Virus record (IMG/VR): IMGVR_UViG_3300014204_000122
Coordinates: 1-64,000 of that record
Strand: one strand, 5' to 3'
Source: a virus
Lineage: Duplodnaviria > Caudoviricetes
DNA length: 64,000 nucleotides
The position numbers and the translations under genes were made by a program. This document shows, piece by piece, positions 5,580-57,539 of this stretch (its first letter is position 1; each line of letters begins with the position of its first letter). Under the pieces are notes generated by a model, which was given only the letters and a program-made list of their open reading frames with translations, was not told the DNA's origin and made no database searches.

Positions 5580-6194
5580 TTATTCCCACCCTAAACTTTC
5601 CAATTGTTCTTTAAGAAGTCCCATGTATTCATAACCTATTGCTGTAAAACTAGATTCTGGTAAAGCTTTCTTACTCAAAAAACAACTTATAAAATCACTA
5701 CCTTCTGAAGTAGGATCATAAAACATAAATAAACCATTTTTTTTTGCTACTTCTTCACAAATTTTAGCCATATCTTCAGAATAACTTTCATCTGCCAACA
5801 AACTTAAAGAGAGGTTTACTTTAAACTTACGAAAAGCTTTCTTTGCAGTTTTAATAAATTCGTTGGTATCTTTCCAATCAGCACCAAACCATTCTATATC
5901 TTTATCAATATCTATACCTTTTTCTTTAAGTTTATCTAGGGTTTTATCTTTTATTTTAAAACCAGGAAAGTTTTCTTCCACATAATTATTTAAAAAACTA
6001 CAAACGTCATAATTCCCCAAATCACCAAAAAAATAAACTATTTTATTTTCTTTATCTATTTCTATAATATTTTTTAACCTTTCATCTATTTTAATAGGTT
6101 TAAAATATTTAGATTTGTAAACTTCATTATCTTCTAATATTACTTTCTTATTAACAAGCTTCTCTAATTTTTCTATAAGTACAATAATGTTCAT
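5580..6194 (-). CDS. LIEKLEK-leader family protein (putative internal head protein)
   Basis: N-terminus MNIIVLIEKLEKLVNKKVILE and the next ~60 aa are shared with 18035..18748; lone minus-strand gene in a plus-strand block, preceded by ATATTTA. Confidence 0.6.
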   Translation of the reverse strand: MNIIVLIEKLEKLVNKKVILEDNEVYKSKYFKPIKIDERLKNIIEIDKENKIVYFFGDLGNYDVCSFLNNYVEENFPGFKIKDKTLDKLKEKGIDIDKDIEWFGADWKDTNEFIKTAKKAFRKFKVNLSLSLLADESYSEDMAKICEEVAKKNGLFMFYDPTSEGSDFISCFLSKKALPESSFTAIGYEYMGLLKEQLESLGWE

Positions 6195-6284
6195 TTTATT
6201 AAATTTCTTTTATTTAAATATAAGTTTTGCTAAAATTTTTCTTATTTTTATAATCCAAACACATTAAATTTAAAATAAAAACAT

Positions 6285-6995
6285 ATGGAAAAATTCGCTG
6301 TTAAACTACCTAATGGTATAAAAAGAGAAGAAAAACTTAAAGAAGTAGAAACAATTATAGGAGATAAATTAGACATAAACTCAGATAGAAAAAATATTAT
6401 TTTTTTTGAAGATGGATCTTATACTGATAATTTATCAATTTATGGTCTTGATAATTGTGATGTTTATTATTTAAGAGGGGATCGTACAATATCTAAAAAA
6501 GTAGAAAAATTGCTTAAACAATGGGCCGAAATGGAGGAACCTTGTTGTGAAAATTGGATAGAAGATGATGAATGCTGTTGCAACGATTGTAATTGCGAAA
6601 AAGATAGTAACAAAAACAAATGTTGTAACAATTGTAATTGTGAAAATCATAGTGATAATAGTGATGAAAAAATAGAAGAGTTTAATTTAAAAATAGAAAA
6701 ACTTTTAAATAGTTTATTTTGTAAAAGTTTTCCTAGTTTTTTTACAAATAAGACAGAAGAAAAAAAAAGATTTGCTGAAATAACTTTAAACAATGGAGAT
6801 AAAAAATTATTGTCTAATAGTGATTTGAAATTATTAAAAGATTGTTTTGAATTATCTTCAAAAGTAAAACAAACTCTTCCTTTAAATGAACTAGGTTCTT
6901 TATATTGTGATGACGTTAAGGGTGAAATAATTTTTAGTAATGTAAAAACACCAATTACTATTGATGATATAAATGTCGCAATAAACCTTATTTAA
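6285..6995 (+). CDS. hypothetical protein with Cys-rich insert
   Basis: 236 aa; CCENW...CCCNDCNC...CCNNCNC tract. Confidence 0.75.
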   Translation: MEKFAVKLPNGIKREEKLKEVETIIGDKLDINSDRKNIIFFEDGSYTDNLSIYGLDNCDVYYLRGDRTISKKVEKLLKQWAEMEEPCCENWIEDDECCCNDCNCEKDSNKNKCCNNCNCENHSDNSDEKIEEFNLKIEKLLNSLFCKSFPSFFTNKTEEKKRFAEITLNNGDKKLLSNSDLKLLKDCFELSSKVKQTLPLNELGSLYCDDVKGEIIFSNVKTPITIDDINVAINLI

Positions 6996-7001
6996 AAAAT
7001 A

Positions 7002-7409
7002 ATGACAAGAGTAGATATTATAGAGGTAGATAAAGAAAAGAAATATACTTATTATTTTGAAGAATTAAAAGAAGAATTAAAAAACCTTTCATATTCTTTT
7101 TACCATAATTATAAAGATGTTGAAGATAAAATTCAACGATTATGTTCTTATATCTTAGCTAAAGCATTATCAGAATTTAATTGTTCGGATGAAGAAAAAA
7201 AATATGCTAAATTAAATACTTGTTTTGCTAATCATAGTGTTAATGTTCAATGTGGTAATCTTTTTACGGCGTGTTTATTGTTCAATTATTACGTTCCTTT
7301 TGAAATTACCAAAACATATAGTAAATCAGAACCTTTAAAACTCAGAGATGGTAATGAAATATACTATGATTTTGATATTTGTGATTACAAGCTTAGGTTA
7401 AAACTTTAG
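7002..7409 (+). CDS. hypothetical protein
   Basis: 135 aa ORF. Confidence 0.7.
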   Translation: MTRVDIIEVDKEKKYTYYFEELKEELKNLSYSFYHNYKDVEDKIQRLCSYILAKALSEFNCSDEEKKYAKLNTCFANHSVNVQCGNLFTACLLFNYYVPFEITKTYSKSEPLKLRDGNEIYYDFDICDYKLRLKL

Positions 7410-7419
7410 TTATTTTTAA

Positions 7420-7451
7420 TTTGGTTGGTAGAATAATTATTCTTATTTTTA
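7420..7451 (+). promoter_or_regulatory. Bacteroidota-type -33/-7 promoter
   Basis: TTTG(7420)-N20-TATTTTTA(7444); the Bacteroidota consensus is TTTG-N19-21-TAnnTTTG. Confidence 0.6.
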
Positions 7452-7480
7452 GATTTTAAAAAACAAATTAAGTATAAAAG

Positions 7481-8077
7481 ATGAAAATTAAAAATCATAA
7501 GAAAAGAGAATGGTGGTTTTACCCTTGTGAAGGATCAAAACTAAATAAAGAAAGATGTTATATTTTTAAATACAAATCTGATTTAATAAAATTTTTAACA
7601 GCCAATTTAAGTGAATCTGTTAACGGAATGGTTATGTTAGAAGAAAAAAGTTTTAATCGTTCTGGTGCTTTAAGACAATGGAGTGTATGGTATAACGATA
7701 AAAAATATCAAAGTGGAGCTGATTTAAAGGCAGAATTAAGACAAGTAGATTTTAGAGGCAAAAAATACATATCAAAATCACATAAAATAAGTAAAGAAGA
7801 TAAAAAATATTTTGCTTATTCAGATAAAGTAATATCTTTAATGTGTCATATTCAAGATGAAAAAGGTAACGTTTTACCTAAAGATGCTAAAAGATTATAT
7901 AATCTATTTATAAAACGTGGATTTAAAGATTTTGAGCCGACAGATGATGATTTAAAATATATTAATGGACATATTTCTGACGGCATTGATTTTTTTCATT
8001 GGTCAGATAGATGCAACTGGTTAAGAACTAAAACTATTATTGAATATTTTAAAAGAAAAAACCTTTTAATTAGTTAA
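7481..8077 (+). CDS. hypothetical protein
   Basis: 198 aa ORF downstream of the promoter motif. Confidence 0.75.
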   Translation: MKIKNHKKREWWFYPCEGSKLNKERCYIFKYKSDLIKFLTANLSESVNGMVMLEEKSFNRSGALRQWSVWYNDKKYQSGADLKAELRQVDFRGKKYISKSHKISKEDKKYFAYSDKVISLMCHIQDEKGNVLPKDAKRLYNLFIKRGFKDFEPTDDDLKYINGHISDGIDFFHWSDRCNWLRTKTIIEYFKRKNLLIS

Positions 8078-8092
8078 AAAACATTTAAAGAA

Positions 8093-8362
8093 ATGAAACA
8101 AATAGATTCAAAGAAAATAAGACGTTCCATGAAAGCTTTTTTTATTAAAGAAGATTGGGGATACGAAAATACTATTACGAAAGTAGAAGTTTTTGAAAAA
8201 GAAAATGAATTAGAAGTACTTATTGAAACTCATTGTCCTGGTATTTTAATAGGTAGAATGGGGAGAACGATAGATGCTTTAAAAGAATGGTTAGAAAAAG
8301 AAGAGGAAAAGGTAATTAAAATAAATCTACAGGAAAATCTCATGTGGTGTGATCTTTATTAA
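8093..8362 (+). CDS. stand-alone type II KH domain protein resembling the N-terminal domain of ribosomal protein S3
   Basis: IETHCPGILIGRMGRTIDALKEWL parallels the uS3 pattern IhTarPGivIGkkG; no S3 C-terminal domain. Confidence 0.75.
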   Translation: MKQIDSKKIRRSMKAFFIKEDWGYENTITKVEVFEKENELEVLIETHCPGILIGRMGRTIDALKEWLEKEEEKVIKINLQENLMWCDLY

Positions 8363-8372
8363 AAAATAAGAA

Positions 8373-8786
8373 ATGAAATTAAATTATAGAGAAGTTAAAA
8401 AACTAACAGATATTGAAAAAGATGATATTATTACTATAACTGGAGATCGTTTAAAAGATAAATCTTTTAAAGTACAAATGGTAAAAACAACTAAAAAAGA
8501 CGGTGTAGAAATAATATTTAACTTAGGGCAAAATCTTTTTTTTAATTTAGGAATGTATCTTGAAGGGAAATCATGGGTTAAAGAATGTAAAGTTTGCGAT
8601 AGTAAAGAAAAAGTGTTAAGGAATACAATTCAGGACATTTATAAATATTTAGATGTAATTGAAATCTATTTAAAAGAAGAACATTATCATGAAACAGATA
8701 AAATACAGCAAAAAGAGGATTATTTTTTATATCAAGAAGCAAAAAAACTTAAATCTAGATTAAAAAAATTTAAAACAAAAAAATAA
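8373..8786 (+). CDS. hypothetical protein
   Basis: 137 aa ORF. Confidence 0.7.
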   Translation: MKLNYREVKKLTDIEKDDIITITGDRLKDKSFKVQMVKTTKKDGVEIIFNLGQNLFFNLGMYLEGKSWVKECKVCDSKEKVLRNTIQDIYKYLDVIEIYLKEEHYHETDKIQQKEDYFLYQEAKKLKSRLKKFKTKK

Positions 8787-8917
8787 TGATAGCAACAATA
8801 ACCTTAACAATTATTATAGTAGGATGTATATATTATAGACCTGCAATAGAAAAAACAAAAGAAGGAGATTTTTATCTTTTTTATGGAAATAAAAAAAGAA
8901 AATATATTAAGTTTTAA
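8786..8917 (+). CDS. small membrane protein (not in ORF track)
   Basis: 43 aa MIATITLTIIIVGCIYYRPAIEK...; TAATG overlap with the upstream stop; fills the gap. Confidence 0.6.
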   Translation: MIATITLTIIIVGCIYYRPAIEKTKEGDFYLFYGNKKRKYIKF

Positions 8918-8921
8918 AAAC

Positions 8922-9122
8922 ATGAATGTAATTTTTGTTTATTTTAAAAACAATAAAATAAAAATTCTTGATATGGATTGTTCAAAAGATGAACATATTC
9001 AAATGATAGAAGAAGGATGGAAACATACTGCTTCTTTGAATCCTTGTATTTTTATTGAAAACTTGTTTAATAATTCCAAAAACATAGAAAGTGATATAAA
9101 AGAATTATCTAAAAAACAATAG
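8922..9122 (+). CDS. hypothetical protein
   Basis: ORF 8883..9122; start moved to ATG 8922, after the small ORF. Confidence 0.6.
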   Translation: MNVIFVYFKNNKIKILDMDCSKDEHIQMIEEGWKHTASLNPCIFIENLFNNSKNIESDIKELSKKQ

Positions 9123-9123
9123 A

Positions 9124-9528
9124 ATGAATAGAGTAATTAAATTTAGAGGATATGACGATATAGCTGATACCTGGTGTTATGGTGTTGGAATTTTTATAGA
9201 TAAAAGAGGAAACTATATTTTACTTTTAGATAATTACTTTACAGTTATTATTAACGATCCTCAATCTATTGGACAATTTATAGGTATATATGATAAAAAC
9301 AATAATGAGATATACGAAGGTGATATAATTACTTTTACAAGATATACAGGCGATTGGCAATCTCCTAAGCCACGTAATTTGTTAACTACAACTCATACTG
9401 TAGTTTTTGATAAAGATTTATGTCGATTTGGGTTATCAAGCACAAGTAGTGATACTCAAAAATTAAGAAAACATTCGGGTTACATTTATGAAATTATAGG
9501 AAATACATTTGAAAATGGACAAAAATAA
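9124..9528 (+). CDS. YopX family protein
   Basis: IKFRG, GQFIGIYDKNNNEIYEGDI and EIIGNTFEN signature. Confidence 0.9.
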   Translation: MNRVIKFRGYDDIADTWCYGVGIFIDKRGNYILLLDNYFTVIINDPQSIGQFIGIYDKNNNEIYEGDIITFTRYTGDWQSPKPRNLLTTTHTVVFDKDLCRFGLSSTSSDTQKLRKHSGYIYEIIGNTFENGQK

Positions 9529-9802
9529 AGAAAATACATCTATACTTCTTTGTAGTTGTGGGTCTGCAGAGCATCAAATAATTATATACAAAGATGAAAA
9601 CTTTTCAGATAATTATAAAGAAGTTGTTTTGTGTCCTCATTTAATTACACATAAAAATATTTTTAAAAGAATATTAGTTGCTGTTAAATATATATTTGGA
9701 TATAAATGTAAATATGGTTCATGGGATAATCTTATAATAACAACCGAAAATTATCAACCTTTAAAAGAAGCAATTGAATTTCTTGAAAATAACAAAAATT
9801 AA
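9509..9802 (+). CDS. conserved phage hypothetical protein
   Basis: CSCGSAEH...FKRILVAVKYIFG. Confidence 0.7.
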   Translation: MKMDKNKENTSILLCSCGSAEHQIIIYKDENFSDNYKEVVLCPHLITHKNIFKRILVAVKYIFGYKCKYGSWDNLIITTENYQPLKEAIEFLENNKN

Positions 9803-9813
9803 AAAAATATAAA

Positions 9814-10125
9814 ATGGAAGAAGATTTAAAAGGATCACAAGATCAATTAATTGAAGTAAGTATGACACACGAATTTATCAATAAAATTTTAGAAAGAGAG
9901 GGTGAAATTCCTGTTATCTTAGATAACTGTGTGTTAAACATTAGATCCAAAAGAAGTACTATTTATTTACTTTGGGGTGATACAGATTTTAATCAAAGAG
10001 CAATTGAAATATGTTATGCAGATAATCATAGTGAAATTATATACGGAGGTAAAGTAAATTCGGAACAAGAATTAGAAAAAATAATTTTAGATAGCTTAAA
10101 AATACAAAATAATGACAATAATTAA
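9814..10125 (+). CDS. hypothetical protein
   Basis: 103 aa ORF. Confidence 0.7.
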   Translation: MEEDLKGSQDQLIEVSMTHEFINKILEREGEIPVILDNCVLNIRSKRSTIYLLWGDTDFNQRAIEICYADNHSEIIYGGKVNSEQELEKIILDSLKIQNNDNN

Positions 10126-10345
10126 TTTAGTTTCAAAAAAAGTACAAGAGATTTTTGATTTTAACTATAAAGATGATTTTTGCAAACCTACCTTTATGAT
10201 TTCAAAAATGCAAGGAAAAGGATATGTTTTTACATTAATTCACAACTCTAAAGAAGAAGCTTACGATTATAGACAATCTGAGTTTATTAATTTAGATACA
10301 GATCTAAACGAATTGATAGAAGAACTATATCATAGAACCATGTAA
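10112..10345 (+). CDS. hypothetical protein
   Basis: 77 aa ORF. Confidence 0.65.
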   Translation: MTIINLVSKKVQEIFDFNYKDDFCKPTFMISKMQGKGYVFTLIHNSKEEAYDYRQSEFINLDTDLNELIEELYHRTM

Positions 10346-10357
10346 AAATAAAACAAA

Positions 10358-10606
10358 ATGACAGTATTAAATGAATTAATAAAAGAGTTTGAGAATATTA
10401 AAAATACACAGTGTAAAACATTACAAGAAGTTGTGTTTTTTGATGGTATTTTATCAATTATAGAATATCAGTATTTAAATAGAGAAAAAGAACAAATCAT
10501 TAATGCTTTTCTTGCTGGTAAAAAATTTATAGATGGTTTAAACTATGCACCTAATGCATCTAGAGATATTGCTGAAGAATGGTTTAAAAATAATTTTTCA
10601 ATTTAA
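10358..10606 (+). CDS. hypothetical protein
   Basis: 82 aa; EKEQIINAF-type motif frequent in phage small proteins. Confidence 0.7.
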   Translation: MTVLNELIKEFENIKNTQCKTLQEVVFFDGILSIIEYQYLNREKEQIINAFLAGKKFIDGLNYAPNASRDIAEEWFKNNFSI

Positions 10607-10638
10607 TTTGTTTGGTAAGATAATTATTCTTATTTTTA
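10607..10638 (+). promoter_or_regulatory. Bacteroidota-type -33/-7 promoter
   Basis: TTTG(10607)-N20-TATTTTTA(10631). Confidence 0.6.
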
Positions 10639-10787
10639 AACATTAAAATTAAATTAAAATGGCTGAAATTTATATTGAACAACAATTTATAAAAAACATT
10701 ATTACAGATAATACCTTTAATGTTTTGCAAGAAAACTTTAGTTGACTTTAAATGACAGTGAAATTCAAACATTTTTAATTTCCTACA

Positions 10788-10822
10788 ATTAAAATTAGTG
10801 AGTTATAGTCTCACTTTTAATT
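10788..10822 (+). terminator. putative hairpin terminator
   Basis: AGTGAG/CTCACT stem flanked by aattaaaa/ttttaatt. Confidence 0.4.
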
Positions 10823-10832
10823 AAATCTCTTG

Positions 10833-10915
10833 TTTTTCTTTAATTTAAAAGAGTTATTTTGCTTTTCTATATATTTCCTTATTTTAAATAAATAATCTTT
10901 TAAATCAAAGAAAAA
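10833..10915. repeat. long imperfect inverted repeat (about 26 bp arms, 30 nt spacer)
   Basis: tttttctttaatttaaaagagttattt ... aaataatcttttaaatcaaagaaaaa. Confidence 0.75.
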
Positions 10916-10918
10916 TAA

Positions 10919-10950
10919 CTTGTTTGGTAATAAAATTATTTATATCTTTA
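10919..10950 (+). promoter_or_regulatory. Bacteroidota-type -33/-7 promoter
   Basis: CTTG(10919)-N20-TATCTTTA(10943), upstream of 10982. Confidence 0.55.
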
Positions 10951-10981
10951 AACTTTAAAAAAAAATAAATTATTAAATATT

Positions 10982-11401
10982 ATGAAAGCAATAGTTAAAC
11001 TTGCAATTGAAGAATATCAATGTTCTGGATGTGTAATTGGTGGTAATGTTCAATGTTATGAAAAAAACAGTTTAAGTGGTATTGGCTGTGGTAAACATTT
11101 TGCAGGAACCGAAAGTCCTGGAATAGGTAAATTCTTTTTAGGCATGCCAAAAGGTTTTAATAGGCTAGGGTTATATACTAACTTAAAACCAAATATTTAT
11201 GAAACTTACGAGAGTTCAGATTGGAAATATAATATGTGGAATATACCAGCTTGGAAACATCTATCAAAAGAAGGACACACTTTTGTTAGAGGAATTATTC
11301 CAAGAAAAAATGAACCTTTTATTCATGTTTTTTTAGAAAATTGTCTTGATAAAATTAATTGTCTTGAAATTACCCAAGAGAATGTTGATTTTATGAATTA
11401 A
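10982..11401 (+). CDS. hypothetical Cys-containing protein
   Basis: 139 aa ORF; CxxC...C...CxxH. Confidence 0.75.
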   Translation: MKAIVKLAIEEYQCSGCVIGGNVQCYEKNSLSGIGCGKHFAGTESPGIGKFFLGMPKGFNRLGLYTNLKPNIYETYESSDWKYNMWNIPAWKHLSKEGHTFVRGIIPRKNEPFIHVFLENCLDKINCLEITQENVDFMN

Positions 11402-13050: not shown

Positions 13051-13053
13051 GCG

Positions 13054-14819: not shown

Positions 14820-15663
14820 GAAACAATTAATTAACAAAGCGGATTTGTATTACAAAGAAAATTTATCCCAAATTCTTAGTAATGGTTCTTTAGATAAGAA
14901 TCCACGCGCAAAATATAAAGATGGGACACCTGCACATAGTAAATTTATAACTAGCGTATTTGAAATCTATGATATAGCAAAGGGTGAGTTTCCTATACCT
15001 ACTTTAAGAAATACAGCTATCAAAACAGGAATTAAGGAAATATTTTGGATTTATCAAAAACAAAGTAATTCTTTGCAAGACGCTCACGATTTAGGAATTA
15101 ATTGGTGGGATGAATGGGATATTGGAGATGGAACTATTGGTAATAGATATGGATATGTTGTAAAAAAATATAATCTTATAGGAGAATTATTGTCAGGCTT
15201 AATATCTAATCCTTTTGGAAGAAGACATATTATTACTCTATATCAATACGAAGATTTAAGAAGTTCTAAAGGTCTAGATCCTTGTGCTTATGAAACTTTA
15301 TGGTCAGTTAGATCAGAAGGAAAAGAATTAATTTTAGATATGACTTTAATTCAAAGAAGTAATGACTACTTAGTTTCTGGATATATTAATAAAATACAAT
15401 ACGTAGCTTTACAAATGATGGTTGCCAGACATTGTTCAATGAAAGTAGGTAAATTTAATCATTATGTTAACAATTTACATATTTATGATAGACATTATGA
15501 TGCTGCAAACGAAGTATTATTAAGGGATTCGTTAGAGTTACAACCATCGATTAAATTAGATAATAAAAATAATTCTTTTTATAATTTTAATATAGAGAAT
15601 TTTTCTATTCATAATATAGAAAATATACAAAAAATAAAATCTCCTTTAGATTTAGCTATCTAA
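14818..15663 (+). CDS. thyA: thymidylate synthase ThyA
   Basis: GRRHII, PCAY, QRSND, N and HIYDRH catalytic motifs; start at ATG 14818 preferred over 14761. Confidence 0.93.
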   Translation: MKQLINKADLYYKENLSQILSNGSLDKNPRAKYKDGTPAHSKFITSVFEIYDIAKGEFPIPTLRNTAIKTGIKEIFWIYQKQSNSLQDAHDLGINWWDEWDIGDGTIGNRYGYVVKKYNLIGELLSGLISNPFGRRHIITLYQYEDLRSSKGLDPCAYETLWSVRSEGKELILDMTLIQRSNDYLVSGYINKIQYVALQMMVARHCSMKVGKFNHYVNNLHIYDRHYDAANEVLLRDSLELQPSIKLDNKNNSFYNFNIENFSIHNIENIQKIKSPLDLAI

Positions 15664-15959
15664 TGATTGTAACTATCTCTTCTTTAAAAGAATACAAATT
15701 TGATAATTGTAAAAATAAAAATCCTTTGCCCTTTGATTTTTATTTACCAGAACATAATATTTGTATAGAATTTGATGGAGAACAACATTTCAAATCCATT
15801 AGTTATTTTGGTGGAGAAAAAGGATTTAAAAATACTCAAAAAAACGATTTAATCAAAACTAGTTATTGTAAAGAAAATAACATTAAGTTGATTAGAATAA
15901 ATTATTTAGAGTTTAAAAAAATTGAAGAAATTTTAAATAAAAATCTTGTTAATGTGTAG
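15663..15959 (+). CDS. stand-alone PD-(D/E)XK/Vsr-like nuclease domain, duplicate of the next gene's C-terminus
   Basis: LPFDFYL...IEFDGEQH...D..K..YC...I.LIRI. Confidence 0.7.
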   Translation: MIVTISSLKEYKFDNCKNKNPLPFDFYLPEHNICIEFDGEQHFKSISYFGGEKGFKNTQKNDLIKTSYCKENNIKLIRINYLEFKKIEEILNKNLVNV

Positions 15960-16857
15960 AAAAATGACAAATTCTGAAGTAATTCAGAAAGCTAATCTTA
16001 TTCATAATAACTTTTATGACTATTCTTTGTTTGATTATCAAGGAATGAATATTAAAACTAAAATAATATGTCCTATACATGGGGTATTTGAACAAACACC
16101 AAATAATCACATTCACAATAAACAAGTATGTTTAAAATGTTGTAATTCTAAAAAAACTTTGACAAAAGAAAAATTTATAGAAAGATCAAACGTTATTTAT
16201 GATAATTTTTACGATTATTCTTTAGTTGTTTATAAAAATTGTTATACTAAAGTTAAGATAATATGTCCTATACATGGTATTTTTATGCAGACACCAAATG
16301 CTCATCTAGCAAAAAATAAATGTTTAAAGTGTAGTTATGAAGAAAAAAGACAAACATTACAAGAATTTATAAATAAAGCAAATATTATTCATGATAATTT
16401 TTATGATTATTCTTTAGTTAATAACCTTAAACCAAAATATAAAATTAAAATAATATGTCCCAATCATGAAGTTTTTAAACAATTGCCAAGTGCTCATCTA
16501 GCTGGAAATGGATGTCCTAAATGCAAATCTTCTAAAGGTGAAATTAAAATTAGAAATTTTTTAATAGATAATAATATAAATTTTAAAGAACAATATAAGT
16601 TTAAAAAATGTAGAAACCAAAGAGTTTTAATTTTTGATTTTTATTTAACAGATTTAAATATATGCATAGAATTTGATGGTATACAACATTTCAAATCCAT
16701 TAGTTATTTTAGTGGAGAAAAAGGATTTAAAAAAACCAAAATAAATGATTTAATTAAAACTAATTACTGTAAAGAAAATAATATTAAATTGATTAGAATA
16801 AATTATTTAGAATTCAATAATATTATAAATATTTTAAATAATGAACTAAATATTTAA
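15946..16857 (+). CDS. putative homing endonuclease (three DUF723-like Zn-ribbon repeats plus Vsr-like nuclease)
   Basis: Three YDYSL..KIICPxH.F.Q.P..H...C..C repeats; FDFYL/IEFDGIQH C-terminus. Confidence 0.8.
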   Translation: MLMCRKMTNSEVIQKANLIHNNFYDYSLFDYQGMNIKTKIICPIHGVFEQTPNNHIHNKQVCLKCCNSKKTLTKEKFIERSNVIYDNFYDYSLVVYKNCYTKVKIICPIHGIFMQTPNAHLAKNKCLKCSYEEKRQTLQEFINKANIIHDNFYDYSLVNNLKPKYKIKIICPNHEVFKQLPSAHLAGNGCPKCKSSKGEIKIRNFLIDNNINFKEQYKFKKCRNQRVLIFDFYLTDLNICIEFDGIQHFKSISYFSGEKGFKKTKINDLIKTNYCKENNIKLIRINYLEFNNIINILNNELNI

Positions 16858-18034: not shown

Positions 18035-18748
18035 ATGAATATTAACATATTAATAGAAAAATTAGAGAAGCTTACTAATAAAATAGTAATGTTGGAAGAG
18101 GATAACGAGGTTGTTTATTCAAAATATATTAAACCTATTAAAATAGATGAACGTATTAAAAAATTTATTATTAAGATAGATGATGATAAAAAAGAATTAG
18201 TTTACTTATATGATACTAAAAATGATATAGTTAATTATCTTAGAAAAACATATCCTGATTATAATTTAATAAAGCAAGAACATATTGATTATATACAGCA
18301 ATTCATTACTATTAATGGCAATGAATTAACTTTTAAAGGTGATGTTAGACCACTCGAATTAAAAACCTTTGAAACATATTATAAAAATCATATTATTAAT
18401 GTTGAGGGTAATGTTTTTTTTAACAATGAAAAATTAAAAGAAATACCTATACAATTTGGTTATGTAAAAGGTAATTTTCATTGCTATTATAACCAACTAA
18501 CATCATTAATTGGGTGTCCTGAATTAGTAGGCGATGATTTTAGTTGTGATAATAACCAACTAACATCATTAGAGGGTTGTTCTAAAAAAATAGGAGGTAA
18601 TTTTCATTGTGATAATAACCAACTAACATCATTAATTGGTTGTCCTAAAAAAATAGAAGGTAGTTTTTGGTGTAGAAATAATTCTAAACAATTTACAGAA
18701 GATGAAATAAGAGAATTATGTAAAATTGGTGGAAAAATTTATATTTAA
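18035..18748 (+). CDS. LIEKLEK-leader family protein with LRR-like repeats
   Basis: Leader plus three 22-aa repeats of the form NQLTSLxGCPxxxxGxFxC. Confidence 0.8.
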   Translation: MNINILIEKLEKLTNKIVMLEEDNEVVYSKYIKPIKIDERIKKFIIKIDDDKKELVYLYDTKNDIVNYLRKTYPDYNLIKQEHIDYIQQFITINGNELTFKGDVRPLELKTFETYYKNHIINVEGNVFFNNEKLKEIPIQFGYVKGNFHCYYNQLTSLIGCPELVGDDFSCDNNQLTSLEGCSKKIGGNFHCDNNQLTSLIGCPKKIEGSFWCRNNSKQFTEDEIRELCKIGGKIYI

Positions 18749-21481: not shown

Positions 21482-21540
21482 TTTATAAAAGAAGAAGTAA
21501 GAGAATTATGTAATATAGATGAAGAAATTTATATTTAATA
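21481..21540 (+). repeat. 60 bp direct repeat, copy 2 (orphan 3' remnant of an LRR-like gene)
   Basis: Translates as FIKEEVRELCNIDEEIYI* versus FTEDEIRELCKIGGKIYI*. Confidence 0.8.
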
Positions 21541-21549: not shown

Positions 21550-24500
21550 ATGCCAATAGAAAATCAAAATATTGTTCAAAATTTAAAAGAATTAAAATTC
21601 TTACAGGATGCTTTATTGGGTAAAATAGATTCAATAAATAATTTAACTAAAGAAGAAATTAATGATTATTATAAATCTGTAGCTAATTTAGGATTATTAC
21701 ATTTACAAACGCAATTAATAAATCAAAAAGAAAACGATGATCGAATAGTTCAATATTATGAAAAGTTAAAAGAAAAAGAATTAAAATTAATTCCTCAAAC
21801 TGATTTTGGTAAATTTACTAAAGAATATTATCAAGAACTAGCTGTTTTAAGTGAAGAAAACCATGAATTCGGAAAAACAATAGCAAAAGAAGAAAATAAA
21901 GATACAATAGAATATTATCAAAGTGTAACTAATTTAAGTGATAGAAATCATTTATTTGGTTTTACAATAGCAGAGGAAGAAAATCAAGATACTACTGAGT
22001 ACTATCAAGAAAAGGTTAAAACTTTAAGTGATAGAAACCACTTGTTAGGATCAGTTATAGCCGAAGAGGAAAATCAAGATACAATAGAATATTATCAAAA
22101 TGTAACTAACTTAAGTGATAGAAATCATTTATTAGGTTCAGTAGTGGCTGAAGAAGAAAACCAAGATACAAGAGAATATTATAATGATGTAACTGATTTA
22201 AGTAATAGAAATCATTTATTGGGTTCAATAGTTGCAGAAAAAGAAAGTCAAGATACAAGAGAATATTATAATGATGTAACTAACTTAAGCAATAGAAATC
22301 ACTTATTAGGTTCAGTAGTAGCAGAAGAAGAAAGTCAAGATACTACCGAATATTATCAAAATGTAACTAACTTAAGTGATAGAAATCATTTATTGGGTTC
22401 AGTGGTTGCTAACGAAGAAAACCAAGACACTACTGAATATTATCAAAGTGTAACTAATTTAAGTGATAGAAATCATTTGCTGGGATCTATTATAGCAAAT
22501 AGAGAAAGTCAAGATACAAGAGAATATTATAATGATATAAATGAATTAAGTAGTCAAAAAGCATTAAGAGAAAAACAACAAGTTGCAAATTTACATCAAG
22601 ATACTACTGATTATTATAAAAAAGTTGCAAAACACGCTGTTAAACAAAAAATGCCATTTAAAGCTGCTTTAGATAGGTTTAAAGATCCTAAATTTCATGC
22701 AGATTGGGGTTTTCACATGGATCCTAGTACATTTAGTTTTGGTGGTGGTGTAGGAATTGAATACAGAGGATTTCAACTTGACTTAAGTATACAAAAATAT
22801 TATGGGGATTTAGATGCTAGATCAAAAGCATGGGCTAGAAGAAATAAAATCAAACAAAGATATACGTTAGATGATTTAACTGATTTAGGTAAAAAAGCAT
22901 CTAGTCAAGTTACTCCTAATGGTCAAATGACAGATGCTCAAAGAAGTGAATACGAATTAGGATTTATAAAACCAGAGGCAAAAGAAATAGAAAAATATTT
23001 TGGTACTGAATCTTCTAAACCTGTGTTAGCATCACCTTATAAAACTAGTATTTTAGGAGCTGATATGAATACAGGTGTTAAGTATTCAGAAAAAATAGAT
23101 CATGTAAGAGAAGTACAATTAAATGAGAAAACTCCGTTATCTAACTATGTTACAGAAACAGGAGCTTCTAAAGTTGATGTTTTTGATGATTCTATTATTG
23201 ATTCTAATAAAACTTTAGAAGAAAAAACTAAACATGTTAGAGATAAACTTATACAATCTACTGTTGCTCCTATTTCTTTAGAATCTAAAATATTACCGAC
23301 AGGAGCAATTAGTGATAAAATTGTTCCTGTAACAAATACTAGTACAAAATCAGCAGAAGAAATAAATCAAGAAAGAAGCGAGAAGGTAAATAAATTATTT
23401 AGTAAATATCACGCTGATAATTCTTCTAAAACCTCTATGGCTAATTCAGGATTACTTTCTGATTCTATGACATTTCCTAAACCGGGAGAAGAAATATCTA
23501 CTCAAAATACTCTTAATGGAAAATCTTTAGCAAGTAGATCATCATATACTTTTTCAGGGGGAGTTATTCATAAAGGATTTTCTGGACTAGATGGATTAAA
23601 AGCTAGTACTTTTGGAACACCTGATAATCCTACTTCTAAAAAATTAGAAGCAATGCTTGCAGAATATAAAGCAACTGCTCCTGGATCTTATAAATTTTTT
23701 ATAGAAAAGCTACATGGACGTCATACTAATGGTAATTATTATGTTAAAAATCCTATTAAGTCTGGTTTATTACGCTCTGATATACCTAACAGAATGCTTT
23801 TCCCTGCTTATATTGAAAATTATAACGATAGCTATGATGTAAATTGGAATTCTGAAAATTTATACGGTAGAAGTGAAGCTGTACATATTTATCAAAATAC
23901 TGGAAGAAAATTATCAATTAGTTTTTTTATGGTATCCGATTTTTCAACAGAAATGTTATTAGCTGGAGTAAAAGCAGCAAGAGACCTTATGAGAAAAGAA
24001 GCAATTTCCAAAGACCCTACTTTAAGCAAACTATATAAAAAAAATCCTAAATCCGCAATGAATCAATATGGGGATAGTTTATCTGATGAAGAAAGATTAG
24101 AAGAGTTAAGAAAAACTTTACCAGATTGGGGTTCAGGTTCTATGATGTATCCAACTATAAGTAACGGAAAATTTGTTGGTTTTGCTCCTGGAAAAATGTC
24201 GGGAACACCTGAAATGTTATGGAGTAAATTAACTTTTTTAGCACAATGTTGTTATCCTTGGTATAGAAATGATGGTAAAATGAAAGAACAACCTTTTATT
24301 AGAATAAGAATTGGTGATTTTATAGATGCTATAGGAAAAATAACAGCTTTCAATATAGATAATTACGAATCTTTTGCCTTAGATTTAAATCCTTCTAAAG
24401 TAGGAGCTATGCCTATGGGTGTAACAGTTACTCTTAGTATGGATATAGTTCATGAAGATGAACCTTCTTCTGAATATTATAAATTTTATCATAGAAAAGA

Positions 24501-26573: not shown

Positions 26574-26813
26574 ATGATTTTACTGGAATATTCTTTAAAA
26601 GAAAAAACAATATTAACTCAATTAATTAATTATTTAGAACCTTTAGTTCCTAGAGAAGAGTTTGAAAAAATATTAGATTTTTATAGTTATTTTGACGCTA
26701 GTTATTTTGACTTAGAAAATGCGGCTGTGTATCAAGAATTTATAAACGCTCTTAAAGAATTAGCATCAAAAAACAATATAATACTACCAGAAGAATTAAG
26801 TTTACCTGAATAA
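26574..26813 (+). CDS. hypothetical protein (MILLE start, putative late/head protein)
   Basis: 79 aa ORF preceded by ATATTTA at 26552. Confidence 0.6.
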   Translation: MILLEYSLKEKTILTQLINYLEPLVPREEFEKILDFYSYFDASYFDLENAAVYQEFINALKELASKNNIILPEELSLPE

Positions 26814-51810: not shown

Positions 51811-52773
51811 ATGGAACTTGAATCTTTAAAAACATTAAAAAAAACTTGTGAAGAGTGTGGTGAAGTTTTTTATGTTAAAAAATACTTTCCCAATGCAAGA
51901 TATTGTAGTAATGAATGTAGACTAAAACATTTAGGTAAAACTAAAAGAACTATTACTTTAATAACTTTAACATGTGCTCATTGTAATAAAGAGTTTACAG
52001 TAAACTCTGCTAGAAAAAAACAAAAATATTGTTGTAACAATTGTAGATTTTTAGCCAAAAAAATTTATGTAGAGAAAATAAAAAAAATATGTATTGGTTG
52101 TGGTAAAGAATTTGAGGTGCATCCTATTAGAGGAAAACAAAAATATTGTGGAGATAAGTGTAGAATAAAATATCTTAATATTTATCACAAGCGCGAAAAT
52201 AAAGCTTATGTTAAAAATTGTGTTATTTGTGGGAAAACTTTTACTTCATATAATATAAACGCAAAATATTGTTGTTATGGTTGTTTTAAAGATTATTATA
52301 GACCTATTCTTATAGCTAAAGATAAGGCTCGTACTAAACCAAAACCTATTATAACTTGTCAGTGTTGTGGTAAAGAATTTGAAGTTTTAAATTGTAATGC
52401 TAAAAAAACTAAATACTGCAGCAACGAGTGTAGAGTAATTTCTATGAGAAAAAATGCTATTAAAAAGAAAAAACTTAATAGTATATATCATTGCTTAAAT
52501 TGTGGAAAACTTTTTAGTAGTCCTTATCCTAAAAAATATTGCAGTTCTAGGTGTAATCTTAAGGTTAATACTTATAATTTAAAACCATCAAATAAAATTA
52601 AAAAAATTTGCAAAAATGAATTTTGTAAAAAAGAATTTTATGTAAAAGGTCACGATATAAAAAGAAAATTTTGTTGTTATGAATGTCATACTTATTTTAT
52701 GTCAAAAAAATATAAAGAAGATTTATTAAAATTGGACAATAAACAAAGTATTCTTAAAATTTGGAGTTTATAA
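51811..52773 (+). CDS. multi-zinc-finger repeat protein (CxxCGKxF...YCSxxC, about seven units)
   Basis: Repeated treble-clef-like units; no HNH seen; start at 51811 preferred. Confidence 0.75.
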   Translation: MELESLKTLKKTCEECGEVFYVKKYFPNARYCSNECRLKHLGKTKRTITLITLTCAHCNKEFTVNSARKKQKYCCNNCRFLAKKIYVEKIKKICIGCGKEFEVHPIRGKQKYCGDKCRIKYLNIYHKRENKAYVKNCVICGKTFTSYNINAKYCCYGCFKDYYRPILIAKDKARTKPKPIITCQCCGKEFEVLNCNAKKTKYCSNECRVISMRKNAIKKKKLNSIYHCLNCGKLFSSPYPKKYCSSRCNLKVNTYNLKPSNKIKKICKNEFCKKEFYVKGHDIKRKFCCYECHTYFMSKKYKEDLLKLDNKQSILKIWSL

Positions 52774-52804
52774 TTAAAAATTTATATTTAAAAAAAATAT
52801 TTAA

Positions 52805-53245
52805 ATGAAATTAATTTTACTAGAAACTTATAGTTTTAGAAATAATATTGTAAAATATATTTTATCAAAGGATAGAAACTATTTTATATATAAGAAAGCT
52901 TTAAGTTTAGCTAAAAGTAGAGGAGTTGACATTTTCAAAAATAAAGAATTAGCTTATTATATACTGGAAGATGAAGAAGTTATAGCTGGTTTATTTATAT
53001 CTGATAATTTAACAGATTTCGGATTTGATATAGTTGTAGATAAGGAATATGAAAACCAGGGTATTGGAAAAGAATTAACAAAAAAAGCTTTAGAAATTTA
53101 TAAAAATTTAAAATTAATATATGGTGATGATTATTTTTTAGATGTTGAAGTTATTAGTCCTAAATATAAAGATATTTTAACTAAAAATTTTAATTTAAAA
53201 ATTAAACAGGATTTAAAAGATTCAAAATGGATTATGACGGAGTAA
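52805..53245 (+). CDS. GNAT acetyltransferase
   Basis: DIVVDKEYENQGIGKEL acetyl-CoA-binding motif; MKLILLE start. Confidence 0.8.
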   Translation: MKLILLETYSFRNNIVKYILSKDRNYFIYKKALSLAKSRGVDIFKNKELAYYILEDEEVIAGLFISDNLTDFGFDIVVDKEYENQGIGKELTKKALEIYKNLKLIYGDDYFLDVEVISPKYKDILTKNFNLKIKQDLKDSKWIMTE

Positions 53246-53311
53246 TAGTATTAATCAAAAATAATGCTTTAAATCAAAGAAAAATGCACAAAAACATTAA
53301 ATAAATACGTA

Positions 53312-53740
53312 ATGAAGATCGGAATAAAAACATTAATTGAAAAATTACAAAAACTATCGGGTAAAAAAGTTATACTAGAAAGATTTTCTGATGAAGAAAT
53401 TGGTCATTTTATTGATCAAACAATAACAATCAAGGGCGACAAAATAACTTATAAAGGTAATCTTACTTATAAAACATTTGAAATTTTAGCAAATAAATAT
53501 AGTAATTATACTCTTGATGTAATTGGAAATGTTTATATATTTAATAGAGGATACAAAGAAATGCCTATACAGTTTGGCGAAGTAACTGGAGATTTTAAAT
53601 GTTATAATAATAAACTAACCTCATTGAAAAATTTTCCTATAGAAGTGGGTGGAAAAATTGATTGTTCTGGAAATTTAAAAAAATTTTCTGAAAAGGATAT
53701 TAAAAAAATATGTAATGTTAAAGGAGAAATATGGAATTAA
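53312..53740 (+). CDS. LIEKLEK-leader family protein with LRR-like repeat
   Basis: TLIEKLQKLSGKKVILE leader; NNKLTSLKNFP.EVGG..DCS. Confidence 0.8.
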   Translation: MKIGIKTLIEKLQKLSGKKVILERFSDEEIGHFIDQTITIKGDKITYKGNLTYKTFEILANKYSNYTLDVIGNVYIFNRGYKEMPIQFGEVTGDFKCYNNKLTSLKNFPIEVGGKIDCSGNLKKFSEKDIKKICNVKGEIWN

Positions 53741-55809
53741 CCATATATCTTACCAATAATATCTGATTCTAAATACTTAACTTCAAAAATTCCATTTGGA
53801 TATCCCTTAATTATATTATTAGTAGATACCATTTCATATTTATTTCTATGTCCCTTTATAGGTGTTGGAATTATGTCAGGATATAATCCAATTTCAATAG
53901 GTTGATAAACTCTTCTTGTCGCAGGGTCTGTATTATCTTCACCTAGACCTATAATATTATAAATTTTTAATTCTGCTACATTTATTACTCCACTTACTTC
54001 TTGTAAAACAGTTGTTATATTAGACAAATATATAGGTTGATTCATTTGCCAATTTTTAACATCGAAATATTCTTGTAATCTTTTTAAACAATCTATCAGT
54101 ATTTGTTGTTGATTGTTAGAATCCGCAAAAATAGTAAACTCAACTTGTATGTTATATATATCTCCATCAACAATATCTATCCAATCTCCAATAACTCTTT
54201 TATCTATTAAATAATTTTTAATATTTTCTTTTAATAATTGATTTGGAGAAACCCATATTCCATTTGCGTTTTTTTGTTTAGTAGTTAAATAACCATCTTC
54301 ATTTCTACTTAAAATATATAATATTCCCTTTTCTCCTAACCATAAGTTTGGATCAAGAGTTAAAATATCAGTTGTTGTTTGATCTATTTGATAGTTTCTA
54401 AAATAGCTTTCTATTTGATTTGCAATTATTAATCTATTTGCTTGTGTTGTTGCATTTACAAGTTGATTTGTTAATTCTAATACAGTATTTTCGACATCTT
54501 TCATGTTTGCTACCTTAGGCCCAAACAAATCATAAGATACTCTAAAAGGTTGTCCATATTTAGGAGGCATCATTTGTATCATGGCTTTGATATCTTCAGG
54601 TGTAACCCCTCTATCTTGCGCTGCAAAAGTTTGACCTGATATTTCTCTGATTTCCTCAATAGAAGGAATATCTCTACCTCCAGTGGCTGCTGTTAAATTA
54701 TTAACTTTAAAAGATCCTCTAACTTTAGAAAGTTTTGTTAAATCAAGAGAAGAATCTGGTAAACTAAACTCTTTTGAGGTTATCAAAGTTATAGTTTCTT
54801 CTGATACGTTTGTACTTAGACCTCCTCCAACTCTATATTTAATAAAAACAGTACTGTTGATTGGAGGTAAAAAACCTAAATTAACATCATCGTGAACATT
54901 ATTAAAATATTCATCAGCTGTTACAGGTGAATAAATTGCCTCAGGAATATCTTCTGTAGATTGATTTCCAAAAGTTATTGTAACTATATTATTTACATCT
55001 CTTCTTACTATAAATCTTTTAGGTATATCTACCCACTCTCCTTGTTTTATAGTTGAAGAATTTACATTTGTTTCAAAAAAAGCTTTAGATTGAGTTAAAG
55101 CTCTCACTTGATAATATGCATTATTATAATCTATAAAATCATAATCAGCTGGGGCTACTGTTTGATTTCCAGGAACAACAACTATTCCTACAATTTCTGT
55201 AATATCTCTATCATCTAAAACAAAAGATAAAAAAGGTTTATGAAGATTTTCACTAACATAAAAATTTTGTATTTTTGTTTCTCCTGATTTGGCAAAAACC
55301 TCTTTAGTTACAGTATAATCTATAACTTGATTATTTCCATCTAAGTTAGGTAAAACAACTCTATCTTGTTCTGAAGTAAAATTAATAACATCGGGTACTT
55401 CGAAAAAAACACCTGAATTAGATTTTAGTCTTGCACCTGCATTAATTATTGGTAAGTATTTATAATCAGGTGTAATTATTCCATCTGTCGAAACATAAGG
55501 TATACGAACACTTATATTAACATATACAGAAGAACTAACAGTCCCAGTGTTATAAAAACCTAAATTGTTTGCTATTCTAACAAGAGATTCTGCAGCTTGT
55601 GCTGTAGTTCTAAAATTTTCATTAAAAGATTTATCAATATAATAAGATAGCATATCTCCTACATATGCACACATTTCAAGATACATTATATCTGGATTTG
55701 CATCATTAAAGAAAATTATTTTATCAGAGTGATATGTTTTAGCCCAATTTACAAGGTCGCTTTTTAAACTTGTAAAATCTCTGTTTAAGTAATTAATAGC
55801 TGGTTGCAT
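53737..55809 (-). CDS. baseplate wedge protein (T4 gp6/baseplate J-like)
   Basis: YLNRDFTSLK...AYVGDMLSYYID, YRVGGG, ATGGRD, FAAQDRGVT.ED. Confidence 0.9.
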   Translation of the reverse strand: MQPAINYLNRDFTSLKSDLVNWAKTYHSDKIIFFNDANPDIMYLEMCAYVGDMLSYYIDKSFNENFRTTAQAAESLVRIANNLGFYNTGTVSSSVYVNISVRIPYVSTDGIITPDYKYLPIINAGARLKSNSGVFFEVPDVINFTSEQDRVVLPNLDGNNQVIDYTVTKEVFAKSGETKIQNFYVSENLHKPFLSFVLDDRDITEIVGIVVVPGNQTVAPADYDFIDYNNAYYQVRALTQSKAFFETNVNSSTIKQGEWVDIPKRFIVRRDVNNIVTITFGNQSTEDIPEAIYSPVTADEYFNNVHDDVNLGFLPPINSTVFIKYRVGGGLSTNVSEETITLITSKEFSLPDSSLDLTKLSKVRGSFKVNNLTAATGGRDIPSIEEIREISGQTFAAQDRGVTPEDIKAMIQMMPPKYGQPFRVSYDLFGPKVANMKDVENTVLELTNQLVNATTQANRLIIANQIESYFRNYQIDQTTTDILTLDPNLWLGEKGILYILSRNEDGYLTTKQKNANGIWVSPNQLLKENIKNYLIDKRVIGDWIDIVDGDIYNIQVEFTIFADSNNQQQILIDCLKRLQEYFDVKNWQMNQPIYLSNITTVLQEVSGVINVAELKIYNIIGLGEDNTDPATRRVYQPIEIGLYPDIIPTPIKGHRNKYEMVSTNNIIKGYPNGIFEVKYLESDIIGKIYG

Positions 55810-55814
55810 TTTAT

Positions 55815-57539
55815 TTATCCTTCTTTTGTTATTATTTTGTTGCCCACTTTACATATTTTTTTAATTTCTTCTTCTTTAAATTGTACATTATTGCTATAAC
55901 ATATTAAACTTCCTTCAACTTCTTTAGGAAATTCTTTTAAAGATGCTAATTTATTATTAGAACAATCAAAGTTACCTCTAATAATTTTAGGACAGTTTTC
56001 TAAAGATATTAATTGATTATTAGAACAATCAAAATTATCTCTAATATAAACAAAATTTAAAGGTATTTTTGTTAATCCTGCTTTGGAAATATTTACATTA
56101 CCTTCAACACTAAATTCAAAATCACTATATTCTTTTGTTAATATTTTTAAACTTTTTATATCTATATCAGATTCATACATTATTTTAGATTTATCTAAAA
56201 AAGTAATATAGGTATCTAATATTGTTTTTTTATGCTGACTTTTCTGTTGATTAGATCCTTGCGTCCAACCTAGAGGTTTAAATGCAATATTTCTATCTAG
56301 TATATTTAATAATATAAAATTTATATTATCCATTATAGATTTTTTAGTTGCTTGATTAGTATTACCACTTCCTAATAAATCTGCTAATTTTTTTTGAAAA
56401 TATACATTATTATAAGTTTGGTGAGCTTCTCCTGGTTTTAAAGTACGAAAAATTACTTCTTCCTTAAAAGATTTTCTTAATAAATTAACACTATCAACAA
56501 TTTTTTGAATTTTTGCCAAAGGCATTTTATTTCGATACAAACTAGTTAAATCTAAATTATAAATAGGAGAACTTTTTCTCATATCATCTGTAAAATTTCG
56601 AATAGTTAAATTATCTAATTGATCATCATCAACTATACCACTTTTCATTTCTTTTACAACTGTTTCATAATCAGGTAAATGTGCTGATTGCCAAGCTCTT
56701 TCAAAATCTTGAAGAAATTTAGGTGTATAAAAAATACCAGCTCTTTGGTGTTGCTTAATAAAAGTTATAAGTCTAAGGTAAGTATCTTCTCTGATTTTTC
56801 TTTTTACGTTTTTACTATTTCTTAAATAATTTAAAACCTGTATTGTTGTTTTCGCAGCTTTTCTTATATCTGCAGTTTCTGTTGTTGAGCTTCCAGAAGA
56901 ATAAGATAAATTTCCTAATATTTCTTGTAAATAAGCTTTTAATAATAGGTTATATTCTTTATTCTTTCTTTGTTTTTTCTTTGATCCTGTTGCGGCATCT
57001 AAATAGATCATCCATTCACCATTAGAAGCTTGAAATCTATATTGTGCAAAAAATACTCTTGCATTTTTATATCTAATAAATTTTTCTTTTTGTGCACCCG
57101 TTTCACTAAAATCTTTTTTAAATTTAATTACAACACCTACTTTATCATTATCTCTTTTTTCAAAACCCATAAAACTAACTACATATTCGTTAGTTTTTAT
57201 ATCTTTAAAAAAAAACTCTGGTTGTTCTAAAACCCAACGTTGTAAATCTGGTGTGCTTTTAGCAGCTATTTGATCCATTTTTTTTAATTGTAGTGAATCA
57301 AGACTGTCATAAGGGTCTGTAGCTTCTAATATAATTTTTTTATTTACTTTGTTTTCTAATAAAGTAATTAAATTTTTAAGATTAATACTTTCTTCAATAA
57401 AATCTTTTAATTGTTCAATAGACATTTTTTCAGCAGTATTTTTTATATTATCATCTACTTCAGAACTAGAAATTTTACCTAATTTATATCCGTATACTAA
57501 TTTCATAAAAGCTAATTGCTTTTCACTTACACTAGGCAT
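55815..57539 (-). CDS. LIEKLEK-leader family protein: DUF3008-like N-terminus, unique core, LRR-like C-terminus
   Basis: MPSVSEKQLAFM...MS.EQLKDF; LITLLENKVNKKIILE; C-terminal NNQLISLENCP repeats. Confidence 0.75.
   Translation of the reverse strand: MPSVSEKQLAFMKLVYGYKLGKISSSEVDDNIKNTAEKMSIEQLKDFIEESINLKNLITLLENKVNKKIILEATDPYDSLDSLQLKKMDQIAAKSTPDLQRWVLEQPEFFFKDIKTNEYVVSFMGFEKRDNDKVGVVIKFKKDFSETGAQKEKFIRYKNARVFFAQYRFQASNGEWMIYLDAATGSKKKQRKNKEYNLLLKAYLQEILGNLSYSSGSSTTETADIRKAAKTTIQVLNYLRNSKNVKRKIREDTYLRLITFIKQHQRAGIFYTPKFLQDFERAWQSAHLPDYETVVKEMKSGIVDDDQLDNLTIRNFTDDMRKSSPIYNLDLTSLYRNKMPLAKIQKIVDSVNLLRKSFKEEVIFRTLKPGEAHQTYNNVYFQKKLADLLGSGNTNQATKKSIMDNINFILLNILDRNIAFKPLGWTQGSNQQKSQHKKTILDTYITFLDKSKIMYESDIDIKSLKILTKEYSDFEFSVEGNVNISKAGLTKIPLNFVYIRDNFDCSNNQLISLENCPKIIRGNFDCSNNKLASLKEFPKEVEGSLICYSNNVQFKEEEIKKICKVGNKIITKEG

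Follow-up and report, generated by a model that had tools for sequence, protein, structure and literature searches.

A portable peptide tag on unrelated proteins of an uncultured T4-like phage as a probable head-loading propeptide

Here we describe a short peptide tag that is joined to many unrelated proteins of one phage and that probably serves as a propeptide, loading these proteins into the phage head and then being cut off, as an enlarged natural version of the T4 capsid-targeting sequence (CTS). The tag was first seen as a leader in four open reading frames (ORFs; proteins P0001 to P0004, Table 1) of a 64-kb window, the first 64,000 nucleotides of the 136,569-bp viral record IMGVR_UViG_3300014204_000122 (26% G+C), in which window and genome coordinates coincide. 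The record is 63% complete by CheckV and represents a distant T4-like, uncultured phage. The same proteins are on record on a separate 192,988-bp contig, so that this phage must also have been assembled at greater length. Searches of the GenBank phage collection gave no DNA match to the genome and no protein match for the tagged protein that was tried.

In the translations of the window ORFs, the leader has a 16-residue core, L-I-E-K-L-E-K-L-x-N-K-K-V-I-L-E. The preliminary description had proposed that a leader profile be run over the genome and its relatives. Iterated over the six-frame translation, the profile retrieved 24 genome ORFs that carry the tag, which was also found in relatives and in metagenome clusters. 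Most genome copies have a long form of 30 residues, MKSEKEKQLEIQLLTEKIQRISGKKVVLKE, and the window leader is a short form (21 residues) of this tag without its first 9-12 residues. Nineteen of the copies stand at the N terminus and two at the C terminus, the other three being internal, and several tagged genes form tandem arrays, such as the seven genes at 78.8-83.5 kb. The hydrophobic spacing read from the consensus indicates an amphipathic helix, followed by K-K-V-(V/I)-(L/F)-x-E. Similarity ends exactly at the Glu, downstream of which the sequences are unrelated; in BLASTP comparisons of all genome ORFs, paralogue pairs mostly have 80-100% identity over residues 1-30 and then none. No Pfam or PHROGs family covers the tag in the 102 tagged proteins scanned, each PHROGs family being matched by one member only, and no description of the tag was found in literature searches. 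One further long tag, at about 88022-88879 (+) of the genome, is broken by an in-frame TAA that follows its seventh codon (MKSELEK, stop, LEIQLL..) and marks either a pseudogene or a gene with a later start.

The tag is not confined to this genome. Among 1.84 billion cluster representatives, 103 clusters match the tag profile at E ≤ 1e-3, and about 85 of these do not come from this phage (the own-genome clusters are 14 of the 101 newly fetched, plus P0001 and P0003). Cluster members range from 31 to 631 residues and are unrelated after the tag, which is almost always located at residues 1-30. Relatives of the phage, found via the capsid protein (60-83% identity) and in one case via a DNA pattern, each carry several tagged genes, and at syntenic places different phages have different cargo after the tag. 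In one close relative, the short form is again joined to leucine-rich repeat (LRR) proteins.

Variation among the copies points to the peptide as the conserved entity. Pairwise differences within the tag amount to 0.12, 0.05 and 0.27 per site at codon positions 1, 2 and 3, with 0.54-0.65 in the flanking DNA; since the tag differences fall mostly at third positions, selection acts on the peptide and not on the DNA. The differing codons comprise 426 synonymous and 294 non-synonymous cases, with position 2 nearly invariant. This bears on a quite improbable alternative, in which the tagged genes form a paralogous family whose 5' ends have been homogenised by recombination or gene conversion, or conserved as a translational operator on the mRNA, so that the peptide has no targeting role. 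About 12 copies, some of which belong to tandem arrays, are indeed near-identical over the 90-bp tag region, and the short tag, domain A and LRR modules of the window act as one paralogue family (see below). However, the codon-position pattern led us to reject an mRNA-level explanation, the DNA upstream of the tag is not conserved, and the tag also occurs at internal and C-terminal places. Its protein sequence is moreover kept in phages with only about 60% capsid-protein identity and on the ~85 unrelated clusters.

The genome also encodes a protease of the kind that such a propeptide would need. Outside the window, at 110-118 kb, there is a T4-ordered head module in which the portal is followed by a protein of 302 residues, a Peptidase_S77 protease, a protein of 225 residues, an acidic one of 490 residues and a gp23-like capsid protein; the counterpart order in T4 is 20-67-68-21-22-23. 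The protease (genome 113257-114027) belongs to the gp21 family, with a Peptidase_S77 score of 76.9 bits against a cut-off of 27 and a match to phrog_207 at E 7.9e-34. In T4, gp21 cuts after Glu in hydrophobic-x-Glu-type sites (PMC9026906). A [LIVMF]-x-E ending 4-6 residues after KK is present in 97% of 95 tags versus 13% of control segments, and across these tags G-K-K is followed by V, V/I, L/F, K/E and E, with no conservation past the Glu. Site comparisons, which read conservation of the motif and not cleavage itself, place KKQILQE↓NN of the capsid protein at the gp23 maturation site LTE↓AE (arrows, cut), and the site is conserved as QIL(Q/A/R)E↓NNT in five relatives with 60-83% capsid-protein identity. 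L-x-E sites near the N and C termini of the protease, which have counterparts in T4, are likewise conserved in relatives, the C-terminal one at the position of T4 ITE↓SQ.

Tags are also found within the head module itself. The 302-residue protein beside the protease ends with a tag, and in its AlphaFold2 (AF2) model (predicted local distance difference test, pLDDT, 67) the C-terminal tag forms a free helix (residues 260-295) behind a disordered acidic linker. The core of this protein gave no convincing fold match (Z at most 7.4), and a word-indexed search for homologues returned only the query. In relatives, a double-tagged protein family sits between portal and protease, and P0053, which has two tandem tags, is a homologue (E 3e-14) of the acidic protein between the protease and the capsid gene. 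The two proteins that follow the protease begin with compressed tags, MKTEKKIFKE and MDKTKIKKLLTE. The first of these (genome 114029-114706, +) and MNTEKKLLKE (genome 133134-133373, +) look like tag starts compressed to 10 residues. T4 IPII and IPIII begin MKTYQEFIAE, which shares four of 10 residues with MKTEKKIFKE and three of 10 with MNTEKKLLKE in the same hydrophobic pattern, a comparison too short for statistics. Short [LIVMF]xE starts were dropped as evidence, with 45 of 152 proteins having one within the first 12 residues.

A tag that is short, N-terminal and removable-looking could in principle be an export, membrane-targeting or degradation signal, either a secretion leader or a protease degron. 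None of the results favours this directly, and we consider it highly improbable, given that the tag is charged and amphipathic with neither a hydrophobic core nor a lipobox, that it also stands at C termini and internally, and that it is linked to the head module.

The preliminary description had read the leader as a capsid-targeting signal by analogy with T4. The protease gene, the hydrophobic-x-Glu tag end, the match to the capsid site, the tags on head-core proteins and the sharp boundary at Glu all support this reading; what has changed is that the leader is only the short form of a genome-wide tag, that two of the proposed carriers (the GNAT and the ORF at 26574) are unsupported and that a third, P0004, is weak. 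As we picture it, the tag helix would dock its protein onto the scaffolding core during prohead assembly, perhaps through like-with-like helix contacts, which are suggested because core proteins of relatives carry tandem tag copies. The gp21-type prohead protease would then cut after the terminal Glu of the tag, and the tag peptides would be lost or kept as small peptides. The mature cargo would remain in the head and leave with the DNA at the next infection. Predicted mature starts are residue 22 for P0001 (DNEVY..), residue 22 (or 23) for P0002, residue 24 for P0003 (RFSDEE..) and, if it is a member, residue 73 for P0004. Such cargo would include, in the window, P0001 and the two LRR proteins, P0002 and P0003, and, elsewhere in the genome, an encapsulated-ferritin homologue and a 2H-phosphoesterase polyprotein.

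Membership in the window was examined with an independent profile, built from 72 long-form tags, all from other genomes, and run against the six-frame translation. It matched P0001 (E 1.3e-6), P0002 (E 1e-7) and P0003 (E 9.9e-8), in all of which the core begins within the first eight residues. The leader had been described in four genes, and it stands in these three (E 1e-6 to 1e-7). In P0004 the copy is internal and marginal, with the core at residues 57-72, E 1.3 with the independent profile and E 0.045 with a short-form profile that excludes the P0004 copy; because it is located at residues 52-72 of 574, the segment is not a leader. The ORF at 26574 had been included for its ILLE start, which is compatible with chance (profile E 36), as is the MKLILLE start of the GNAT at 52805, a gene absent from the tag-profile list; two N-terminal [LIVM][LIVM]LE starts were seen versus 0.6 expected by chance. 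P0003 follows the GNAT gene after 66 nt, on the same strand. Several members had also been said to lie antisense to their neighbours, which is clear for 5580-6194, with no clear case otherwise. None of the four window proteins has a Pfam or PHROGs match above threshold, and the P0004 core gave only sub-0.9 leads in an atlas search. A DUF3008-like start of P0004 was not confirmed, with no Pfam match and only E 0.42 when P0004 was compared by BLASTP with the DUF3008 region of P0064, a protein that had no match in IMG/VR.

Table 1 Positions of the tagged genes, their modules and associated features in the window
Feature	Position	Strand	Description
P0001	5580..6194	-	204 aa; short-form tag LIEKLEKLVNKKVILE, domain A, unique core; antisense to + strand neighbours
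P0001 tag	6132..6194	-	aa 1-21; ends KKVILE; predicted cut after Glu21
Box of P0001	6215..6222	-	TATATTTA; 28 nt before start
Box of P0002	18006..18013	+	TATATTTA; 29 nt before start
P0002	18035..18748	+	237 aa; carries segment LIEKLEKLTNKIVMLE
P0002 short-form tag	18035-18097	+	
P0002 domain A	~18098-18289	+	
P0002 domain B	~18290-18475	+	
P0002 LRR repeats and cap	~18476-18748	+	
ORF starting MILLE	26574..26813	+	79 aa; unsupported as tag member
Box of GNAT gene	52783-52790	+	TATATTTA; upstream of 52805
GNAT acetyltransferase	52805..53245	+	starts MKLILLE; PF00583, 29.1 bits vs cut-off 20.7
P0003	53312..53740	+	142 aa; segment LIEKLQKLSGKKVILE
P0003 tag	53312-53380	+	ends KKVILE
P0003 domain B and LRR	~53408-53737	+	
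Baseplate-wedge-like protein	53737..55809	-	690 aa; phrog_219, E 2.2e-11; directly downstream of P0004
P0004	55815..57539	-	574 aa; 51-aa N-terminal segment, weak tag-like segment, ~360-aa unique core, domain B and LRR
P0004 domain B and LRR	~55827-56246	-	
P0004 internal tag-like segment	57324..57386	-	LITLLENKVNKKIILE; aa 52-72; ends KKIILE

The modules that follow the short tag bear out what had been described of them. Domain A is shared by P0001 and P0002 (49% over 95 residues, BLASTP) and recurs outside the window at 82897-83466, inside 74496-76457 and in an ORF cut by the contig end. Domain B with its repeats relates P0002 to P0003 (47% over 92 residues, E 3e-19) and to P0004 (37% over 143 residues, E 1e-25), with further copies at 76462-76899 and 136096-. 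The last of these belongs to a protein (genome 136096-136569, -) with domain A, domain B and LRR that is cut by the record end where a tag would be expected, its first readable residues being LEDGEYQSKYFKPIKIDER. The repeats are 21-22 residues long and contain Cys, and by their homologues and the model of P0002 they are true leucine-rich repeats. P0002 has more than 1000 homologues in databases, many with Pfam LRR_4 (PF12799); P0002 itself falls below the Pfam LRR threshold, and one of the 102 scanned tagged members matches LRR_4 (E 2.9e-5). Its AF2 model (pLDDT 93) has a helix at residues 3-14, a strand at 19-22 and short strands about 20 residues apart through residues 120-215. In a Foldseek search, the best PDB matches of the model are LRR proteins, though weak (E at least 0.15).

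The end of P0002 also has a second copy in the window. Its last 39 nt (18710-18748, +) recur at 21500-21538 (+), in the gap before the gene at 21550 and without an LRR gene, where 0 matches are expected by chance. The stretch encodes ..RELCKIGGKIYI plus stop and holds a TATATTTAA box used by the next gene, and the second copy reads ..RELCNIDEEIYI plus stop. It looks like the relic of an LRR gene end bearing a promoter.

Beyond the window, the tagged proteins include a 488-residue protein (genome 121097-122563, L004:17097-18563, +) whose gene lies about 3 kb downstream of the capsid gene. Its first 30 residues are a long tag, and at about residues 219-300 there is an encapsulated-ferritin (EncFtn) domain, for which the match to 5n5e (Pyrococcus EncFtn domain) in the PDB spans 76 residues (E 6e-18). 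The PDB relatives with E ≤ 1e-3 comprise 5n5e, 2e0z (a Pyrococcus encapsulin fusion) and Myxococcus EncC and EncB, all of which act inside HK97-fold shells, as cargo or as shell fusion. The EncFtn metal ligands Glu and Glu-x-x-His are kept, IIAE and EEKTH aligning with IIAE and EEKAH. Against Pfam EncFtn-like, the protein scores 25.1, below the threshold of 27, and its relative P0067 scores 29.1, above it. The tag directly precedes the EncFtn domain in two relatives, while three EncFtn-bearing viral contigs in IMG/VR are without a tag; no EncFtn match was found in 50,697 GenBank phage records. Two neighbouring genes were seen to carry tags away from the N terminus. A 653-residue protein (genome 74496-76457, -) has an internal tag and an internal domain A preceded by ILE, and a 145-residue LRR protein (genome 76462-76899, -) has a C-terminal tag, its stop lying 5 nt before the 653-residue protein. 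The larger protein has a 2H-phosphoesterase match (PF13563) below threshold (24 bits, cut-off 27). The LRR modules would fit a role in binding some host protein, and anti-defence roles of the cargo are something we infer only.

Two promoter-like boxes accompany these genes. TATATTTA is located 18-38 nt before 20 genes, versus four for its reverse complement in the same zone. P0001, P0002 and the GNAT gene belong to this group, with the box 22-29 nt ahead of their starts, and it also includes the protease, a baseplate-hub-like gene and the gene of the acidic head protein. The ATATTTA noted earlier upstream of several members is thus a real box, but a general promoter-like one that stands before 20 genes. 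A second box, TTCTTATTTT, precedes early-looking genes, a polymerase-like gene and the portal gene, and in the window it was found in the regions upstream of 6285, 7481 and 25001. The two classes face each other in the 90-nt gap 6194-6285, where the divergent neighbour at 6285 has TTCTTATTTT. The shared TATATTTA box suggests that P0001 and P0002 may be co-expressed with morphogenesis genes.

Several observations weigh against head loading followed by cleavage. The long tag, at three times the length of the T4 CTS, has no detectable similarity to it. The Glu site is missing from a few tags, such as KKAFLVK in a 272-residue protein and VVLSIDILKE in a 230-residue protein. In the mediocre AF2 model of the 302-residue protein, the tag is not docked on the protein's own body. 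Late timing is something we only infer, because the TATATTTA box is similar to a general Bacteroidota-type -7 element. With its weak tag copy and its place in a baseplate operon beside the wedge-like gene, P0004 may be a mere structural paralogue with a decayed copy. In the P0002 model, a strand at the end of the short tag is paired with domain A, and therefore the short-form segment may be partly structural. ILE before domain A also occurs without the helix, inside the 653-residue protein; together with the strand pairing, this means that the short-form cut site may be partly buried. In short-form genes, tag and domain A together resemble a single conserved paralogous unit and not a leader that is shuffled freely. 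Since the close relative also has the short tag on LRR proteins, the short tag, domain A and LRR behave partly as one paralogous family.

Some of these points would fit another explanation, in which the tag is a shared docking or oligomerisation helix for a different assembly (baseplate, tail or a cytoplasmic complex), with the Glu as a domain linker, and is neither packed nor cut. The operon of P0004, the joining of the short-tag end to domain A and the amphipathic spacing of the helix would all agree with this, and the LRR modules could be adhesins. However, P0004 is the weakest member, and in several relatives the tags are found in head-module proteins between portal, protease and capsid gene. 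The tag end also resembles the capsid-protein maturation site, and the EncFtn cargo indicates a shell interior. On balance we regard a docking helix of this type as unlikely, and a head-loading propeptide as the probable role of the tag.

Unrelated to the tag, a repeated domain of about 75 residues is common to three ORFs, at 15663-15959 and 15952-16857 of the window and 132529-133062 of the genome, with up to four copies in 15952-16857.

A wider hypothesis, which we put forward tentatively, is that this phage clade uses one 30-residue module, derived from its own scaffolding-core repeats, as an address label for loading dozens of interchangeable proteins, the head acting as an encapsulin-style carrier besides holding the DNA. 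The cargo might then comprise LRR binders, a 2H phosphoesterase/ART-like polyprotein, an encapsulated-ferritin homologue and many proteins of unassigned function, and the tagged EncFtn would link phage internal proteins to encapsulin cargo. If head loading is correct, the tag provides a sequence-readable catalogue of the injected proteins of a large environmental phage group, about 24 per genome, with about 85 clusters in addition. Such proteins, among which anti-defence functions are expected, are otherwise very difficult to recognise unless virion proteomics is at hand. The tag would also be a longer, highly conserved natural loading signal and a candidate protein-delivery handle in phages of Bacteroidota-type hosts. 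Tandem tags in the scaffold-position proteins of relatives would suggest that such signals originate by copying a piece of the core. Finally, a tagged EncFtn would bear on the question, raised in 2026, of whether viruses encode cargo-like proteins that co-assemble in procapsids (PMC13669383).

Compared with known systems, the tag most resembles the T4 CTS of IPI, IPII, IPIII and Alt. In T4, internal proteins are directed to the core by N-terminal propeptides of 10-19 residues, which gp21 removes, and C-terminal propeptides exist too (PMC9026906, PMC3012670), namely on gp21 and Alt (PMC9026906). Asp in place of the Glu at the T4 site prevents processing, while targeting still takes place (PMC9026906). 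Both systems have a short shared N-terminal propeptide on unrelated proteins that ends in hydrophobic-x-Glu, a gp21-family protease with a T4-ordered head module, and cargo genes that vary among relatives at syntenic places. The compressed starts resemble the T4 sequence MKTYQEFIAE, being also 10 residues long with MKT (MKTEKKIFKE) or M-T (MNTEKKLLKE), hydrophobic positions 7-8 and Glu 10. Unlike the T4 CTS, the tag has 30 residues (21 in the window form) rather than 10, and about 24 proteins per genome carry it, compared with 3-5 for the CTS. It is also used in tandem, internally, C-terminally and in scaffold-position proteins of relatives, and its packaging and cleavage are predicted. For P1 DarB, the N-terminal 30 residues suffice for capsid targeting (PMC9024508). 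There too a signal of about 30 residues at the N terminus takes a protein, reporter included, into a myovirus head for the next host; however, the DarB signal is on one protein, depends on other Dar proteins, shares no protease-site logic and has no sequence similarity to the tag.

The cleavage motif of phiKZ-like phages is (S/A/G)-x-E. In phiKZ, 201phi2-1 and SPN3US, inner-body or ejection proteins are processed by cuts after Glu (PMC9026906, PMC5694885). As with the tag, there are many head-internal propeptides cut by a gp21-related protease, with redundant or tandem sites and paralogous families, but these lack a single conserved, portable propeptide sequence, and the phages are not close relatives of the one described here. 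In encapsulins, a short cargo-loading peptide sends diverse cargo into an HK97-fold shell, a likeness extended here by the tagged EncFtn homologue. Encapsulin targeting peptides usually occupy the C terminus, attach to the shell protein and stay uncleaved, whereas the tag, found in a DNA-packaging virus, occupies the N terminus and has a protease-type site at its end. The tag differs from these systems in how long and conserved it is and in how many and how varied its carriers are, as well as in being used in tandem, internally and at C termini, in occurring in scaffold-position proteins and in having EncFtn cargo.

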